Source: a virus (taxonomy: Duplodnaviria; Caudoviricetes). From it: 64,000 nt of DNA. Positions 7,731 through 51,814 of the stretch are shown one piece after another. The notes under the pieces are model-generated. The model was given only the letters and a program-made list of their open reading frames with translations. It did not search any database and was not told the DNA's origin. Position 1 is the stretch's first letter, and each line of letters starts with the position of its first letter. The stretch lies in IMG/VR virus record IMGVR_UViG_3300021091_000011. One strand, 5' to 3'. The position numbers and the translations under genes are program-made.

Positions 7731-8084
7731 GTGTATTGGATCTACGTCATAGAATCGTTAGTGCCTCGTTACGCGAATAACGGACGTAGATTGCGTGGGT
7801 TTTTCTACGTCGGCATGACGACGCACCCCAACCGCAGATTACGCCAGCACAACGGCGAAATCTTGGGCGGGGGTCGTTATACTGCGAAGCATCGACCGTG
7901 GGTGCTCCGCACCGTGTACGGACCTTATTCTTCTAGGTCCGAAGCACTCAAAGCCGAGTACGCACTCAAGCATAGTAAGCGAGGCGAGGCCCGACTGAGT
8001 TGGACGCCTAATGATTCGGTTTGGTGCCGAACAGCGTATCAAATTGCGGAAGGGGAGGGATTCGAACCCTCGGTGAGGGATTAG
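7731..8084 (+). CDS. SLX1-like GIY-YIG endonuclease
   Basis: WIYVIES...FYVGMTTHPNRRLRQHNGEILGGGRYTAKHRPW...EALKAEYALK; GTG start at 7731. Confidence 0.85.
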   Translation: MYWIYVIESLVPRYANNGRRLRGFFYVGMTTHPNRRLRQHNGEILGGGRYTAKHRPWVLRTVYGPYSSRSEALKAEYALKHSKRGEARLSWTPNDSVWCRTAYQIAEGEGFEPSVRD

Positions 8085-8134
8085 CCCACACACGATTTCC
8101 AATCGTGCGCCTTAAACCACTCGGCCACCCTTCC
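8047..8134 (-). tRNA. tRNA-Ser(GGA)
   Basis: Full cloverleaf, anticodon arm CACGA-TTGGAAA-TCGTG, long variable arm, GGTTCGAATCC; no encoded CCA. Confidence 0.93.
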
Positions 8135-8169
8135 GTATCATGCACTCTGATTTCAGAGTGCGCTCAAAA

Positions 8170-9024
8170 TCAACGCTTTACGAGCGATAACAGGGTTCTG
8201 CGCTCATTAGAACCGACAGGCATCGTAGACGCCAGCCGAATCAGAGAACTTCTCTGCGAAGAGGTCACTCTAAAAGAAGCCTGCTTGTACGGCGCAGTCC
8301 AGTCAACTGAACCGCTGCTAAGTGCCTTCACCGCAGGCTCTACGTGGCCCTTATCAGGGTCGATCACAGGCATTTCTTTGCGGTCAGGAGCCCAACTCGG
8401 CACATTGCGTTTCATTCCCTTGACGTTGTTTGCCATTATGATGATTCCGGTTTCAACTGAACCGAAGTTTTTTTCGAGAATTGCCTTGACGTCATCCGCA
8501 GAGATCGGAAACTCACCCGGAACGCCGTTGTTGGCATACCCTTCAAGCATATCCGCGACGTTCTTGGGCGTGAACTTCGAGATTGAACCCTCGCCTTTCT
8601 TGCCGTTTCTCACGTTGAACTTACCTACGGTGAGGATGTTCAATACGCGAAGAAGGTCTTTACCCGGAAGAGCCGCCTTGTAGCCTTCAACCTTGGCCGA
8701 ATTGCCGCCTGCGATGATCGCAGCCGCCCAACGATGATGACCATCCATGATGAAGTTGTCAGCAGAGATCAGCGCGTTCAAATCGCCGCCGATCTTGCCC
8801 TTAGCGAGCATACCCAAAGCCATGCCGACAGCCTTCCCTAAGACCATCGTGGTCTGGGATGGCTTCAGCGCAGCAGCAACGGAGCTAACCTTGCTTACTG
8901 AGATTTTATCCGAACTGCCGTCGCCGGACTCGCACATCAAGTGAGCGATAGACGGGTCTACTCCTGAGAGCGTTCCGGCTTCCTCAAACTGCTTCTCGAA
9001 AACACCATCTGCCTTACGCCGCAT
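8170..9024 (-). CDS. ParB/sulfiredoxin-like nuclease-domain protein with C-terminal LIRLASTMP module
   Basis: LISADNFIMDGHHRWAA ParB/Srx signature; ends in KQASFRVTSSQRSSLIRLASTMPVGSNERRTLL. Confidence 0.7.
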   Translation of the reverse strand: MRRKADGVFEKQFEEAGTLSGVDPSIAHLMCESGDGSSDKISVSKVSSVAAALKPSQTTMVLGKAVGMALGMLAKGKIGGDLNALISADNFIMDGHHRWAAAIIAGGNSAKVEGYKAALPGKDLLRVLNILTVGKFNVRNGKKGEGSISKFTPKNVADMLEGYANNGVPGEFPISADDVKAILEKNFGSVETGIIIMANNVKGMKRNVPSWAPDRKEMPVIDPDKGHVEPAVKALSSGSVDWTAPYKQASFRVTSSQRSSLIRLASTMPVGSNERRTLLSLVKR

Positions 9025-9287
9025 AATCTACCTCTTCTAGTTAGAGCATCTCGTAACGGCTGATAGATAAATGTGATAACGGCGATTTCACACCAAAGAT
9101 TTCTTGATCTTACCTTCCAAAAACCCCTATGCCTTTTTTACAACCCTCACGGGCAAAAGGCTTACGCCGAAGGGGAAGACCGACGCCACCTGAAACTGCG
9201 TCGTGTGAACACGCAAGACCCGACAGACGCAGTTACTACCTGCCGATCAGGACGGAGGTTGGATTTCCGGGAGGAGGCAGTCGGGCC

Positions 9288-9446
9288 TCATTCTGAGGTT
9301 TCATCAATCGGCTCTTGCTCGTTCTTCTTGGAATCGGAAGAACCGCAGGAAGGGCAGACTCGCGCCTGCTTACCTGATTTTTTGATGATCGTGCGGTATT
9401 TAGTCCCACACGCAGAACAAGTGACTGACACTACGGCTTTACCCAT
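9288..9446 (-). CDS. Small zinc-ribbon protein
   Basis: MGKAVVSVTCSACG...VCPSCGS; start refined to ATG 9446. Confidence 0.65.
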   Translation of the reverse strand: MGKAVVSVTCSACGTKYRTIIKKSGKQARVCPSCGSSDSKKNEQEPIDETSE

Positions 9447-9473
9447 ATCGTAACATACCAAACAAAATGAAAA

Positions 9474-9537
9474 TAGTCCTTGTCGGACTTGAACCAGCAC
9501 TTCCTCGCGGGAATCTGCCTGTTTCGCCAAGAGGCCA
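9474..9537 (-). pseudogene. Degenerate tRNA-like remnant lacking an anticodon arm
   Basis: D-arm-like GGCGAAACAGGCAGA and T-loop GGTTCAAGTCC are present; acceptor stem is imperfect; no anticodon stem-loop. Confidence 0.35.
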
Positions 9538-9540
9538 TCG

Positions 9541-9612
9541 TGGGTCGTTTGGGATTCGAACCCAAAACCAGCGGATTAAAAGTCCGATGCGCTACCGTTG
9601 CGCCAACGACCC
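9541..9612 (-). tRNA. tRNA-Lys(TTT)
   Basis: GGGTCGT acceptor, TCGGA-CTTTTAA-TCCGC, GGTTCGAATCC. Confidence 0.9.
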
Positions 9613-9618
9613 TAAACA

Positions 9619-9680
9619 TTGGGGAACTACCTAGATAGGCGAAATCAAAATCCGCAGTCCTGCCGTTAGACGATTCCCCA
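9619..9680 (-). pseudogene. tRNA-Gln(TTG) with deleted T-loop
   Basis: TGGGGAA acceptor, D-arm and GCGGA-TTTTGAT-TTCGC are present, but CTAGGT joins directly to AGTTCCCCA (about 9 nt such as TCGAATCCT missing). Confidence 0.7.
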
Positions 9681-9686
9681 TTGTAG

Positions 9687-9759
9687 TAGCCGCAGAGGGA
9701 TTCGAACCCCCGACCGTCGCTATGTAAAAGCGATGCTCTACCAACTGCGCTATGCGGCT
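9687..9759 (-). tRNA. tRNA-Val(TAC)
   Basis: AGCCGCA/TGCGGCT acceptor, TCGCT-TTTACAT-AGCGA, GGTTCGAATCC. Confidence 0.92.
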
Positions 9760-9766
9760 ATGTTTG

Positions 9767-10076
9767 TACCCGAAGTCGGATTCGAACCGACACGCCCTTG
9801 CGAGCGGAGGATTTTCTTACCACTATGGTTTTCACCACCAAATCACGTTGTTTGTGGTCTGGACTTTGCCTTCACCCTCGCCATCTAGCCTCGGCTAGAT
9901 TCGTTAGGGCGGCTACCGTCAAGTCTCTACACCTTCCCCATTTATCATGGGGCTTGGCTCGGCGTTGGGTCGCTTTCGCAGGCCGTTCACCGAATTTGGC
10001 AGCATTCACTCAAGGGGCTTTCCCCCTTGGTGCTCAATCAATAAGTCCTCTGTGGCTACCCTTTCACCATTCGGGC
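9767..10076 (-). tRNA. tRNA-Leu(TAA), intron-containing
   Basis: 5' exon ends GAGGACTT and 3' exon starts AAAATCCTC, so splicing gives GAGGA-CTTAAAA-TCCTC; variable arm and T-arm present. Confidence 0.9.
9816..10042 (-). mobile_element. Group I self-splicing intron (IC3 type), 227 nt, no ORF
   Basis: Inserted after U34; P1 CTT/GAG; conserved P AAATTCGGTGAA, Q AACGCCGAGCC, R GTGTAGAGACTTGACGG, S AAGGCAAAGTCC; terminal G. Confidence 0.88.
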
Positions 10077-10085
10077 AATCTCAAG

Positions 10086-10158
10086 TGCCCCCAACGGGAT
10101 TTGAACCCGTGTAACCAACGTGAAAGGCTGGCGTCCTAGGCCACTAGACGATGGGGAC
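10086..10158 (-). tRNA. tRNA-Glu(TTC)
   Basis: CCAGC-CTTTCAC-GTTGG anticodon arm, GGTTCAAATCC. Confidence 0.92.
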
Positions 10159-10162
10159 TAAA

Positions 10163-10420
10163 TCAAAGCCAATAATCAAAGATCGATTCCGCGAAATAAT
10201 CGTCCGGCTTGACCGACTCGATCTGCAAGTCACCATTCGGACTTGCATAACGCACGATGCGCTTTACCAACCAACGCAGGTAATCAGGCCCCCCTGCAAT
10301 CACCCTCGTTTCGGAAAAGCCAACGAGTGCTTGCTCAAGCCCTTCGGTTGATTGCGGTAAAAAATCTTCTAGGTGCTTTACGCCTAGCGCGGTTTTATTT
10401 TCGTGATCGAGTAGCCACAT
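10163..10420 (-). CDS. Hypothetical protein within the tRNA array
   Basis: 85 aa from ATG 10420 (MWLLDHENK), filling the gap between two tRNAs. Confidence 0.55.
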   Translation of the reverse strand: MWLLDHENKTALGVKHLEDFLPQSTEGLEQALVGFSETRVIAGGPDYLRWLVKRIVRYASPNGDLQIESVKPDDYFAESIFDYWL

Positions 10421-10453
10421 GGTACGGCTACTCAAAAAATCAGATAAACGCGG

Positions 10454-10526
10454 CACCACCGGAGGGAATCGAACCCCCATCGACAGGCTTAGAAGGCCCG
10501 CGCCTTATCCGTTAGACCACGGTGGC
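10454..10526 (-). tRNA. tRNA-Arg(TCT)
   Basis: CGGGC-CTTCTAA-GCCTG, GGTTCGATTCC. Confidence 0.92.
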
Positions 10527-10532
10527 AGATAA

Positions 10533-10606
10533 TGGACCCCCTCGGGCTTGAACCGAGAACCAACCGGGTATGAGCCGGACGCGCTAACCACTTGCGCCAG
10601 AGGTCC
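10533..10606 (-). tRNA. tRNA-CAT (elongator Met or Ile2)
   Basis: TCCGG-CTCATAC-CCGGT; G1-C72 is paired, so not an initiator. Confidence 0.88.
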
Positions 10607-10611
10607 AAAAG

Positions 10612-10694
10612 TACGAGCAAAGGGACTTGAACCCCCACGCCCTTGCGGGCACCGGAACCTAAATCCAGCGTGTCTACCGTTCCACCATGCTCGC
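10612..10694 (-). tRNA. tRNA-Leu(TAG)
   Basis: CTGGA-TTTAGGT-TCCGG, variable arm GCCCGCAAGGGC, GGTTCAAGTCC. Confidence 0.92.
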
Positions 10695-10701
10695 TTATTT
10701 G

Positions 10702-10779
10702 TGGACGAGGGAGGACTCGAACCTCCGTGTGATATGCCTGATTTACAGTCAGGTGCAGTCGCCGCTGTGCCACTCGTCC
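10702..10779 (-). tRNA. tRNA-Tyr(GTA) with short variable region
   Basis: CCTGA-CTGTAAA-TCAGG, GGTTCGAGTCC. Confidence 0.88.
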
Positions 10780-10869
10780 AAGAGGCAGACTTCCTCTAAC
10801 TCGGTCTGCCAGCGAGTTCGGTTCCCATGGCAGGTAGAAAAGGAGAAAACCCCGCCACGGGCATCGAGA

Positions 10870-11073
10870 CTACTTGCGCTGAACGAAGTCGTACATTTCT
10901 TCGGCCAGCAAGCGAACCTGCGTGAAGGTCGGGAACGGAACTGCCAGCGGCGGGCGGTTTTCATACTGCGCCCGCGAGTTCTCGTTCTCCTGAGCCGCGT
11001 GATACTGCTCCACGAGCATATTCCGCGCCTCTTGGAGAATCCCCCAACGGATTTCGTAACCGGACTGAGACAT
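10870..11073 (-). CDS. Small hypothetical phage protein
   Basis: 67 aa from ATG 11073: MSQSGYEIRWGILQEA...FPTFTQVRLLAEEMYDFV. Confidence 0.7.
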   Translation of the reverse strand: MSQSGYEIRWGILQEARNMLVEQYHAAQENENSRAQYENRPPLAVPFPTFTQVRLLAEEMYDFVQRK

Positions 11074-11115
11074 AAACCAGACTCCCTGTGTGTGTGGTGA
11101 AAGCAAATACCGCTG

Positions 11116-11347
11116 GTGTGCAACCACCTGAGATCGCTCTAGCGTCCTATAACGATCTCCCCTGCGCGGCGACAAGGACCCCGATAACGGTGAGGTAACC
11201 GGAAGGAGTTTTCGCACCCCTACAAACGCACGGATTCTCGTCCCATGACTACGCTCAAGGACTTAACGAGCCCTGAGAATCGTCCGCATATAACGTCGCG
11301 GCCCCGCCGTTTTCTACCTGACGGTACAGGTTTGAGTGGTTGCACAC
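11116..11347 (-). ncRNA. Candidate ~230-nt structured RNA
   Basis: Perfect 12-bp closing helix GTGTGCAACCAC/GTGGTTGCACAC; inner helices GATTCTC/GAGAATC, AGATCG/CGATCT and CCTG/CAGG; G-U pairs favour the minus strand. Confidence 0.5.
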
Positions 11348-11353
11348 TCAAGG

Positions 11354-11426
11354 CTCCGACAGCAGGACTCGAACCTGCGACCAGGCGGTTAACAGCCGCC
11401 TGCTCTACCAACTGAGCTATGTCGGA
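11354..11426 (-). tRNA. tRNA-Asn(GTT)
   Basis: Canonical cloverleaf, GGCGG-CTGTTAA-CCGCC. Confidence 0.94.
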
Positions 11427-11429
11427 AAA

Positions 11430-12120
11430 AGCGAGGGCGTTCCACCCTCTAGAGCACGATGCCCTTACCACGGCGTCGATCCGCAGTAAGCCCCTGCGCG
11501 TACCTACGCAGAAGACTGAAAGGCTCAAGGCGGGAGCTTACGGTTATCGCTAACCTTAGACCCACTCCACTTTGCTTACCTGCGCCTAACAGGTGCTGCT
11601 GGACTTGTCACTCCAGCGGGAGGTCACTACTTTCCGTCCACCGCCATCCAACCAGAGACATTCCCTGATCGAACGCACGAACTCGGCCAGCAACGTACCC
11701 AATTCGTCCCGCCCTTTTTAACCTCGGCGTCAGGTTCCCCACCACGGTTGGACTGCTACCGTCGGTCTATTGACCGTCGCTCGGTGTCCACTTCGTCCGA
11801 ACGATCCCCGAGCACGGGGACTTACGATCACGGCTTAGAGGCCCGACGAGTTATCATCGGGCTTACCGCGACAGGCTTGTAAGCCGTAGTGAGGATAATA
11901 GGGTCTCCCGCGTCGAGACTTAGCCCGATGCGGTCGTATATTCTGCGACCTAGACCCCTAGTCGCTACATCCGTGATAATCTGAGCCAAATCCCGAACAC
12001 GGCTTCGGGGCTCAGTTCGGGTAGCAGGTCGGCACCAACCAGCCCCCGAAATCGTTTTCAATGAACGTGACGGCTTACTTTACCCAAGCCGTATTGAACG
12101 TCAACCCCTTAGTTGACGGA
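11430..12120 (-). ncRNA. Candidate ~690-nt large structured ncRNA between tRNA genes
   Basis: No credible ORF; at least 8 hairpins (e.g. TCCCCG/CGGGGA, GCCCGA/TCGGGC, TGAGCC/GGCTCA, ACGGCTT/AAGCCGT, CGTCAAC/GTTGACG). Confidence 0.5.
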
Positions 12121-12127
12121 AACTAAG

Positions 12128-12206
12128 CACGCGCAGGAGGAATCGAACCTCCATGCCCTTGCGGGCACCGGAAAATCCGGCGTGTCTGCCATTCCACCAT
12201 GCGCGG
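12128..12206 (-). pseudogene. tRNA-Leu-like gene with anticodon loop reduced to 3 nt
   Basis: Paralogue of 10612..10694; D-arm, variable arm and T-arm intact; anticodon arm is CCGGA-TTT-TCCGG. Confidence 0.75.
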
Positions 12207-12231
12207 ATAACGTGTTGGTCAAATGATTGCG

Positions 12232-12321
12232 CTTACACCATCCAAACGGTTCGGGGCGGCGAGGAAAACCGAAAAAGTGAACGACGATTTCCGGTTTTTT
12301 CGGGGCGGTCTAACCGTTTGG
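12232..12321. repeat. Palindromic element copy A (right arm truncated)
   Basis: Identical to copy B over CTTACACCATCCAAACGG...CCGTTTGG. Confidence 0.9.
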
Positions 12322-12330
12322 GAGGATCGT

Positions 12331-12588
12331 TCACGGCTCGTTAACGACCACCTTGTCGCCCGAAGGCGTAAGGAGGGTGACCGCCGCGATGAAGTACCCG
12401 CAGCACTCCGCGCCGCAGGACTGCTCTGCTGTCTCGACGTCGACGACTTGGTAGCCGTCGACAACGGGCGACGAGATGTTACCCTCGTCATCCTCATACT
12501 CGTAACTCTCGAAAAACGACTTGCCATCTGCCGCCCACGCGGATTCGATTTTCTTGACGATGATATCGAGGTTCTTGAGGTTGTTCAT
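12331..12588 (-). CDS. Acidic hypothetical protein in a repeat-flanked cassette
   Basis: 85 aa; AAGGA RBS just after element B; flanked by direct copies A and B. Confidence 0.7.
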   Translation of the reverse strand: MNNLKNLDIIVKKIESAWAADGKSFFESYEYEDDEGNISSPVVDGYQVVDVETAEQSCGAECCGYFIAAVTLLTPSGDKVVVNEP

Positions 12589-12603
12589 GGTTTATCCTTT
12601 CCC

Positions 12604-12701
12604 TTACACCATCCAAACGGTTCGGGGCGGCGAGGAAAACCGAAAAAGTGAACGACGATTTCCGGTTTTTTCGGGGCGGTCTAACCGTTTGGATGGTGTA
12701 A
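12604..12701. repeat. Palindromic element copy B (17-bp perfect terminal inverted repeats)
   Basis: TTACACCATCCAAACGG ... CCGTTTGGATGGTGTAA around a 64-bp core. Confidence 0.92.
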
Positions 12702-13322: not shown

Positions 13323-13841
13323 ATGAACGTACTTGTGCTCAACTTCGTCTATCGACCGATTGCCGTGATGTCGTGGCAAGAGGCGATCACGACGGTATAT
13401 AGCGGACGTGCTGAAGTCGTCGAGCACTACGCCGACAGGACGATCAAATCGGCCACGCAAGAATGGCCGATGCCTTGCGTCGTTCGATTCCTGCGTAAAA
13501 AGACCGCACGATGGTTTAAGTGCGAGCCGCGATTCACGCGCAAGAACGTCTGGATTCGGGACAAAGGCGTTTGCCAATACTGCGGCAGGCCCGTATTACT
13601 GCGGCAGTTCACTTTAGATCACGTTTTGCCTCGATCACGCGGCGGCAAAACGGAATGGGGCAACATCGTTGCGGCGTGTGACCCGTGCAATCAAAAGAAA
13701 GAAGCACGGACACCGCAAGAGGCAAAAATGCACCTTCGGAAACCGCCGTTGGCTCCGAAGGTGCTGCCCGTTGTCAACGAATCAAATGACCCTGCACTAA
13801 GCCACGTCATGCCCGATCAATGGCGGGCATACTTGGATTAG
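13323..13841 (+). CDS. HNH endonuclease (McrA-like)
   Basis: RDKGVCQYCG...TLDHVLPRSRGGKTEWGNIVAACDPCNQKK. Confidence 0.9.
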   Translation: MNVLVLNFVYRPIAVMSWQEAITTVYSGRAEVVEHYADRTIKSATQEWPMPCVVRFLRKKTARWFKCEPRFTRKNVWIRDKGVCQYCGRPVLLRQFTLDHVLPRSRGGKTEWGNIVAACDPCNQKKEARTPQEAKMHLRKPPLAPKVLPVVNESNDPALSHVMPDQWRAYLD

Positions 13842-15928: not shown

Positions 15929-16804
15929 TCACGCGCGGGTGATCGTGAGGCGGGCGAGACCTTTGGGGTTGTACGCGCCGATGCCGAGGTTTTCGAACAC
16001 GGAGAAGCCGATGGTGCGGGCCTTCGGATCGTCAGCCGAGAGAACGGTGAGTTCGGTACGAACCGGAATGCGACCGAACATCTCGGGCTCGCAGCAGACG
16101 TACACCGTGCCGACCGGAACGAGACGGCTGACGATAATCTGCGCGCCCCAAAGCGTAGCCATAAGGCCCGTCTTGAGAAGATCACGCTGGCTCTCGATGT
16201 CGAGAATATCACGACCGAACTTCCGGAGGTCCGTGTAGTCTTGCGCGTTCACAAACACGCGGGCCACGCGGAGGTCGTGACGCTCGATCAGGCCATAGGC
16301 GTCAGCGAGAACCGCACCGCTGATCGGCGCGACAACCGGAATGTCAGGGTTGATGCCGCCAGCGACGGAATCAAAGCCCGACGTCGCAATCGCGTCGAGA
16401 ACGGAGAACACGCGCTCGTCCTCGGCAGCCTGAATCTGCGCGCGGGCGAGGTCCTGAGCGCGCTCAATGAGGTCGTAACGACGCTCCTTGATCTGCGTCA
16501 GGGGGATCTCGGGGTTCGACGCAATCTCGAACAGGGGGAAGATGACACGGCGCGGCTTGGTGATAGCGACGATGTTCTCGCCTTCCTCACCAACCACGAA
16601 CGCGGTCACGTCCGGGTCCTTGTCGTAGATCGGGAGCGCACCGTCCGGCAACTGCTCGACGAGGAAGGTCTTACGACCAACCGCCATGTAGTCGCGGCGC
16701 AGACGGAGGGGCTGCGTCATGGAGGCAGCGAGCTTCGCACGGCCCGAGGGCGTCGAGATATACTCGCTGATGAGCTTCTGCTTCACGCTGTTGTCGATAG
16801 ACAT
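15929..16804 (-). CDS. Major capsid protein (HK97 fold)
   Basis: GRAKLAASMTQPLRLRRDY...LPDGALPIYD; FEIASNP; GLMATLWGAQII; position after protease, scaffold and decoration genes. Confidence 0.85.
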   Translation of the reverse strand: MSIDNSVKQKLISEYISTPSGRAKLAASMTQPLRLRRDYMAVGRKTFLVEQLPDGALPIYDKDPDVTAFVVGEEGENIVAITKPRRVIFPLFEIASNPEIPLTQIKERRYDLIERAQDLARAQIQAAEDERVFSVLDAIATSGFDSVAGGINPDIPVVAPISGAVLADAYGLIERHDLRVARVFVNAQDYTDLRKFGRDILDIESQRDLLKTGLMATLWGAQIIVSRLVPVGTVYVCCEPEMFGRIPVRTELTVLSADDPKARTIGFSVFENLGIGAYNPKGLARLTITRA

Positions 16805-51712: not shown

Positions 51713-51814
51713 GCTTACACCATCCAAACGGTTAGCACGCCCTGAAAAAACCGGAAATCGACATTCACTTTTTCGGTTTTTTGCACGCCACGAAACCGTT
51801 TGGATGGTGTAAGC
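51713..51814. repeat. Palindromic element copy C (19-bp perfect inverted arms; inverted relative to A and B)
   Basis: GCTTACACCATCCAAACGG...CCGTTTGGATGGTGTAAGC; core AAAAAACCGGAAATCG-nnn-TTCACTTTTTCGGTTTT shared with the reverse complement of B. Confidence 0.92.

Follow-up and report, generated by a model that had tools for sequence, protein, structure and literature searches.

A large structured RNA conserved at the head of a tRNA array in a clade of lake-water giant phages

Locus and extent of the conserved RNA

The stretch of DNA analysed here (64,000 nt, IMG/VR record IMGVR_UViG_3300021091_000011, referred to as the window) is part of an uncultivated phage and carries, at the head of a tRNA array, the structured RNA that is the subject of this report. 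The major head protein gene of the phage lies at 15929-16804 (phrog_2522). No close relative was found in GenBank, where a BLAST search of phages matched the flanking tRNA only. ARAGORN placed ten tRNA genes in one row on the minus strand (8046-12206). A gap of 700 nt (11427-12126) separates tRNA-Asn(GUU), found by both ARAGORN and Rfam at 11352-11426 on the minus strand, from an abnormal tRNA-like gene at 12127-12206 on the same strand, which ARAGORN reported as tRNA-??? and the Rfam tRNA model recovered with 39.6 bits. Both programs located the two flanks, tRNA-Asn and a tRNA-Leu-like gene, that had been named in an initial annotation of this region.

Homologues were obtained from the surroundings of capsid-gene relatives in IMG/VR by BLAST and nhmmer (L004, L005, L007, L008 and L009), from a two-motif scan of metagenome contigs (L241 and L242) and from contigs encoding two neighbouring small proteins (L264, L266 and L270). 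Two other matches of the metagenome scan, L240 and L243, were rejected as chance. Together with the window, these ten lake-metagenome phage contig stretches made up a set of 11 sequences. All ten copies are syntenic, lying between the capsid-gene block and tRNA-Asn, and tRNA-Asn is the next gene after the RNA in every member with enough sequence. The sequences form group A (the window, L004, L242, L264 and L266) and group B (L005, L007, L008, L009, L241 and L270), with nucleotide identity of about 65-70% between the groups within the RNA.

Positions in the RNA were numbered such that RNA position n equals window position 12127-n. A conserved core of about 510 nt (11597-12107, minus strand) was delimited by alignments, nhmmer and folding energy. 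It extends from an invariant GGGUUGA, starting at 12107, to an invariant terminal hairpin followed by CA, ending at 11597. From about 12067 onward (GUUCAUUGAAAA) the core is conserved in every full-length member; in L266 its first 40 nt have diverged. About 20 nt upstream of the core lies the tRNA-like element, a decayed copy of a class II tRNA-Leu gene with an abnormal anticodon loop, which is present in the window, L004 and L264 and absent from L266 and group B.

Downstream of the core, the window has a hairpin-rich 3′ extension of 170 nt (11427-11596, minus strand) without similarity to any relative, ending in a terminator-like hairpin and U run that was detected by a terminator scan (11433-11449). 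The extension is absent from L242, L264 and L266, where tRNA-Asn begins 4-5 nt past the terminal hairpin, and in group B a different extension of about 270 nt precedes tRNA-Asn. Being unrelated to the relatives and absent from three of them, this lineage-specific segment was placed outside the conserved RNA. The motif GGGUCUA, found in the loop of hairpin S3 of the core (described below), occurs once more in the extension (11557-11563, minus strand, RNA position 564), and this second copy may have arisen when part of the S3 hairpin was duplicated.

Only short open reading frames (ORFs) were found in 11427-12126, the longest of 77 amino acids, and none of them is conserved. Many of the alignment gaps between groups A and B are not multiples of three, which excludes a conserved protein at this position. 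The initial description of a hairpin-dense, non-coding region of about 690 nt was therefore correct as to coding content and folding (see below), but only 11597-12107 is conserved and the sense strand is the minus strand.

Folding and covariation

The minus strand of 11427-12126 folded with -299.7 kcal/mol, corresponding to a z score of -5.92 against dinucleotide shuffles, and none of 20 shuffles was as good. The plus strand reached a z score of -1.96. For the conserved core alone, z scores of -3.33 in the window and -4.30 in L008 were obtained. Across the 17 helices described below, 96 G-U cells are compatible with the minus strand only, and for this reason the minus strand, which is also the tRNA strand, was taken as the sense strand of the RNA.

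From five sequences, RNAalifold derived a fold of 134 pairs, of which 35 show compensatory change. Because MAFFT misaligned several stems, helix positions were located in each group from sequence anchors and the pair types were counted; as a control, the 3′ partners were slid by 1-3 columns. With 17 helices and 93 pairs supported by this comparison, the "at least 8" helices first noticed were an undercount. Across the 11 sequences 97% of the cells were paired, compared with 30-48% after sliding, and 37 of the 93 pairs had changed on both sides, compared with 2-8 in the slid controls. Homologue covariation and folding against dinucleotide shuffles had both been suggested initially as checks on the RNA, and both came out in its favour. 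Both-side changes were spread over several helices (three each in S1 and S2, one in S3, four each in S4 and S7, and five in S8). Pair counts made with a separate tool agreed for two domains. In the central domain 93-95% of the cells were paired (30-47% when slid), with 13-16 both-side changes (0-4 when slid), and in the 3′ domain 100% were paired (29-54% when slid), with three pairs changed on both sides.

The sequence of the S1 hairpin has been wholly replaced between the lineages with its pairing retained, and both S1 and X7 have been rebuilt with new sequence. While the helices change compensatorily, about 120 nt in loops and joining strands do not vary, and invariant blocks of 16-25 nt stand in a background of about 70% identity. 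These invariant unpaired bases argue for a tertiary structure or a binding partner. On the strength of these sequence comparisons, the element is a genuine RNA, large, structured and under selection, which has been conserved within a clade of lake-water giant phages.

Three domains were distinguished, all on the minus strand. The 5′ domain (11908-12050) consists of hairpins S1, S2 (with an outer and an inner stem), S3 and S4. Two candidate pseudoknots lie in this part of the RNA: PK1 would pair the S2 loop CCGUG (11998-12002) with CACGG (11971-11975), and PK2 the S3 loop GGGUCU (11952-11957) with AGACCC (11901-11906), the partner strands being located 25-50 nt downstream of the loops. Both pseudoknots, as well as a closing helix P0 (GGGUU with AACCU), are possible structures built of invariant bases. 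In L004-type copies, a U insertion in the PK1 loop is accompanied by a downstream A-to-C change, and five pairs are regained in a shifted register; this double change lends some support to PK1. A further candidate of invariant bases, S5 (GACCC with GGG-A/U-C), crosses P0.

The central domain (11737-11894) is closed by the long-range helix PL, which encloses a five-way junction of X3/X4, X5, X6 and X7 with the invariant joining strands GAUC-N-UAAGU and GUAGCAG. PL comprises 11 base pairs (bp) in the window; with 15 bp it is longer in L004, and with 7 bp shorter in group B. L264 has an 8-nt loop, UAAAGAUC, in place of the entire central domain, and this loop caps a PL hairpin of 12 bp (-16 kcal/mol). 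This variant, keeping the PL hairpin without the domain, confirms PL and identifies the central domain as a removable module. The 3′ domain (11597-11736) begins with the invariant AACCUGACGCCGAGG, followed by S6, S7, S8, a conserved GCGGUGG..GGAAAG strand and the invariant terminal hairpin S9 (11599-11616), whose loop is GUGACAAG.

Transcription, release and distribution

A palindromic, promoter-like repeat of about 95 nt lies upstream of the RNA (12227-12321), with further copies at 12598-12701 and 51715-51812. It has perfect 19-nt arms around a 60-nt centre, and the arm TGGATGGTGTAA ends 125 nt before the RNA core in the window; the distance is 140 nt in L008, L009 and L241 of group B, while in L005 and L007 the arm is decayed. 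A TATAAT box about 90 nt before the core is conserved across group B, without a good -35 element, and no sigma-70 promoter was found upstream of the RNA in the window. From this arrangement, the RNA is predicted to be the first product of the tRNA operon. In L004 (5225-5245) no spacer separates the promoter-like arm (GGGTGGTGTAA) from the first base of the tRNA-like element, the two being 25 nt apart in the window; if transcription starts downstream of the arm, the L004 element would be 5′-truncated in the transcript. Two copies of the repeat also flank an ORF of 85 amino acids (12331-12588), and in relatives the same element surrounds a different, Cys-rich ORF of 91 amino acids (L008, 4955-5230). 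As different ORFs are framed by the same element, genes have apparently been swapped as cassettes between the repeats.

The interpretation that we favour, and regard as reasonably probable, is that the locus encodes a structured non-coding RNA of about 510 nt, belonging to an undescribed family, which comes first in the tRNA operon on the minus strand, is released by tRNA enzymes and is active in trans. Transcription would proceed from the promoter-like repeat just upstream, jointly with the tRNAs, and host tRNA-processing enzymes would cut the RNA free. RNase P, acting at the 5′ end of tRNA-Asn, would produce the 3′ end of the RNA. In the lineage of the window, its 5′ end would result from a cut by RNase Z or RNase E downstream of the tRNA-like element. 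During infection the freed RNA would function as a particle with a stable fold, in the way suggested for the large phage RNAs GOLLD and ROOL, and its invariant unpaired blocks would make tertiary contacts or offer a surface for binding a partner. Release by cleavage of the flanking tRNA structures, already suggested in the initial annotation, is likely from the gene spacing, as tRNA-Asn follows the terminal hairpin by 4-5 nt in L242, L264 and L266. This anatomy, with a tRNA-like element on the 5′ side and tRNA-Asn closely following in three relatives, fits the suggestion, but the flanks are not constant: group B has its own leader, and the window has its 170-nt extension with the terminator-like hairpin.

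A different function for the same structure would be that of a cis-acting leader, which controls whether transcription reads through, how stable the precursor is or in which order the tRNAs are processed, and which does nothing after cleavage. Several features are compatible with such a leader. The RNA always heads the operon with tRNA-Asn next to it, its occurrence follows that of the tRNA array, a terminator-like hairpin separates it from tRNA-Asn in the window, and deletions are tolerated in L264 and L270. However, the RNA is far more elaborate than known leaders require, given its 510 nt, its five-way junction, the candidate pseudoknots and about 120 unpaired bases that do not vary. The distance to tRNA-Asn ranges from 4 to 270 nt, which would be odd for a cis device, and close relatives have tRNA arrays without the RNA. 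We therefore consider a purely cis-acting role unlikely.

The distribution of the RNA is narrow. Exact-motif scans of IMG/VR returned only known members and chance matches, the latter being rejected by nhmmer or a covariance model. A scan of 185,579 species genomes (one per prokaryote species) gave 12 chance matches, none of which was confirmed by covariance model R1 of the central domain, and thus revealed no homologue in cellular genomes. Within the reach of these tools, the family appears restricted to one clade of lake phages. A lone weak match (18.5 bits) of covariance model R2, representing the 3′ domain, was discarded, as it sits within two protein-coding ORFs (L277). The relatives L001 (2039-4216) and L006 (5387-6183), with 98-99% identical capsid protein, carry an oppositely oriented tRNA set downstream of the capsid gene and lack the RNA. 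The tRNA/RNA module is thus mosaic among very close relatives.

Several observations weigh against a selected RNA released from the operon to act in trans. Models R1 and R2 matched none of 28 related phage records, three of them near-complete. Identity between the lineages within the RNA (about 65-70%) is lower than at the third codon positions of the capsid gene (80%). The family comprises 11 contigs, with two deep lineages and sub-variants, and because it is so narrow many of the both-side changes trace to few events and the invariant blocks partly reflect shared ancestry. The 5′ leader varies between the tRNA-like element, the TATAAT-containing leader of group B and a third leader in L266; since the leaders differ and the window has a terminator-like hairpin before tRNA-Asn, the proposed cuts are not uniform. 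In L270, a deletion of about 190 nt starts at helix X5 and stops shortly before the terminal hairpin; it should break the fold, and this copy is probably decaying. The deletions in L264 and L270 indicate that the RNA, or parts of it, is dispensable and hence accessory rather than essential.

Alternatively, the region could be decaying debris of tRNA genes or of a mobile element, in which hairpins persist by recent descent and not by selection. A decayed tRNA-Leu copy does adjoin the RNA, the deletion in L270 is disruptive, and the family is young and narrow. Nevertheless, the tRNA model (RF00005) matched nothing inside 11427-12126 at an expectation (E) value of ≤10, the 37 pairs changed on both sides still pair, S1 and X7 have been rebuilt with new sequence, PL has been kept at three different lengths, and the 16-25-nt blocks have remained invariant in a background of about 70% identity. 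Debris is therefore very unlikely.

Comparison with known RNA families

Rfam 15 gave no match in the RNA region at E≤10, whether 3.3 kb or the 700 nt alone were searched, and none in the relatives L007, L264 and L266 at E≤5. The same search recovered the tRNAs and a group I intron (9836-10052). The covariance models of GOLLD (RF01998) and ROOL (RF03087), which had been put forward for comparison at the outset, likewise matched neither the window (E≤10) nor the three relatives (E≤5). Transfer-messenger RNA (tmRNA) was not detected by ARAGORN, the sole Rfam tmRNA fragment (10 bits) being located elsewhere, at 9775-9791, and no RNase P RNA model matched 11427-12126 at E≤10; the absence of both had been noted from the sequence motifs and was upheld. 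Group I intron model RF00028 did not match 11427-12126, and no split gene flanks the RNA. Full-text literature searches retrieved no paper describing the RNA.

GOLLD is a large and intricate RNA of phages and prophages that was discovered in lake metagenomes and often adjoins tRNA islands, and ROOL is a phage and prophage RNA of about 500-600 nt, likewise encoded close to tRNA islands, which contains multiple pseudoknots and has no known protein partner (10.1101/2024.12.08.627333). The RNA described here has the location typical of GOLLD, in a phage next to tRNAs, at the head of an array of ten. It also resembles GOLLD in its occurrence in lake metagenomes, its large size and the combination of a variable 5′ part with a conserved 3′ part. 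In contrast to GOLLD, which exceeds 800 nt, it measures about 510 nt, contains no tRNA and is not matched by the model. With ROOL it shares the size class (about 500-600 nt), the tRNA-island niche in phages and multiple pseudoknots, which are candidates only in the present RNA; it differs in its conserved motifs, is not matched by the ROOL model and is known from one lake-phage clade only. The RNA was accordingly assigned to a new family, with niche and size class as the only features in common with GOLLD and ROOL. Of the two possibilities raised initially, a GOLLD/ROOL-like or a new large RNA, the second is upheld by the homologues, the covariation, the domain swap and the folding energy, while the first holds no further than niche and size.

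The species 1 and species 2 RNAs of phage T4 (rnaC and rnaD), encoded in the T4 tRNA cluster, are similar in their mode of production. These stable RNAs are co-transcribed with the phage tRNAs and freed by tRNA-processing enzymes. They are, however, small (about 120-140 nt) and simple compared with the RNA of about 510 nt described here. In MALAT1/mascRNA and in the tRNA punctuation of mitochondria, an adjacent tRNA or tRNA-like fold recruits RNase P or RNase Z and thereby makes the end of a long RNA. Those systems are eukaryotic or mitochondrial, whereas the cut proposed here is inferred from gene spacing.

That the RNA is a highly diverged GOLLD, ROOL or ribozyme (group I or II intron, RNase P RNA) missed by the Rfam models is most improbable: although the niche of GOLLD and ROOL is shared (phage tRNA island, lake metagenomes, large size, variable 5′ part; 10.1101/2024.12.08.627333) and homing endonuclease genes (HNH, GIY-YIG) are nearby, neither the 700 nt alone at E≤10 nor three relatives gave a match, the same library did detect, at a distance of 1.5 kb, a group I intron with 52.9 bits, and the RNA neither interrupts a host gene nor has exons around it.

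Bacterial and phage RNAs of more than 500 nt with conserved complex folds are very few, namely ribosomal RNA, RNase P RNA, tmRNA, group I and II introns, OLE, GOLLD, ROOL and raiA, and each has either proved to be a machine or stays a prominent puzzle. More speculatively, and with a low probability in our view, the RNA could represent a third class of giant phage RNAs, independent of GOLLD and ROOL but, like them, an RNA-only machine. It would either assemble itself into a particle or act as a ribozyme on tRNAs or on the translation apparatus, and its build would be modular, the central domain being open to loss. If true, such an unrelated class in the same surroundings as GOLLD and ROOL would lend weight to the view that large RNAs and tRNA sets are combined by phages to serve a shared purpose. 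With one variant lacking a domain and another having tRNA-Asn 4 nt downstream, the family offers a small, modular test case for structure and processing.

The group I intron mentioned above (Rfam RF00028, 52.9 bits, 9836-10052, minus strand) lies between tRNA-Val and tRNA-Glu, 1.5 kb from the RNA. The segment 9761-9815 (minus strand) matches phage tRNA-Leu genes, and 9761-10076 was therefore assigned as an intron-split tRNA-Leu gene that had not been called by ARAGORN. Free-standing homing endonuclease genes of the HNH and GIY-YIG types were observed within 1-2 kb of the RNA in several members (13323-13841, plus strand, in the window; 1284-1616 in L266; 1894-2412 in L264), and these genes may drive local mosaicism.
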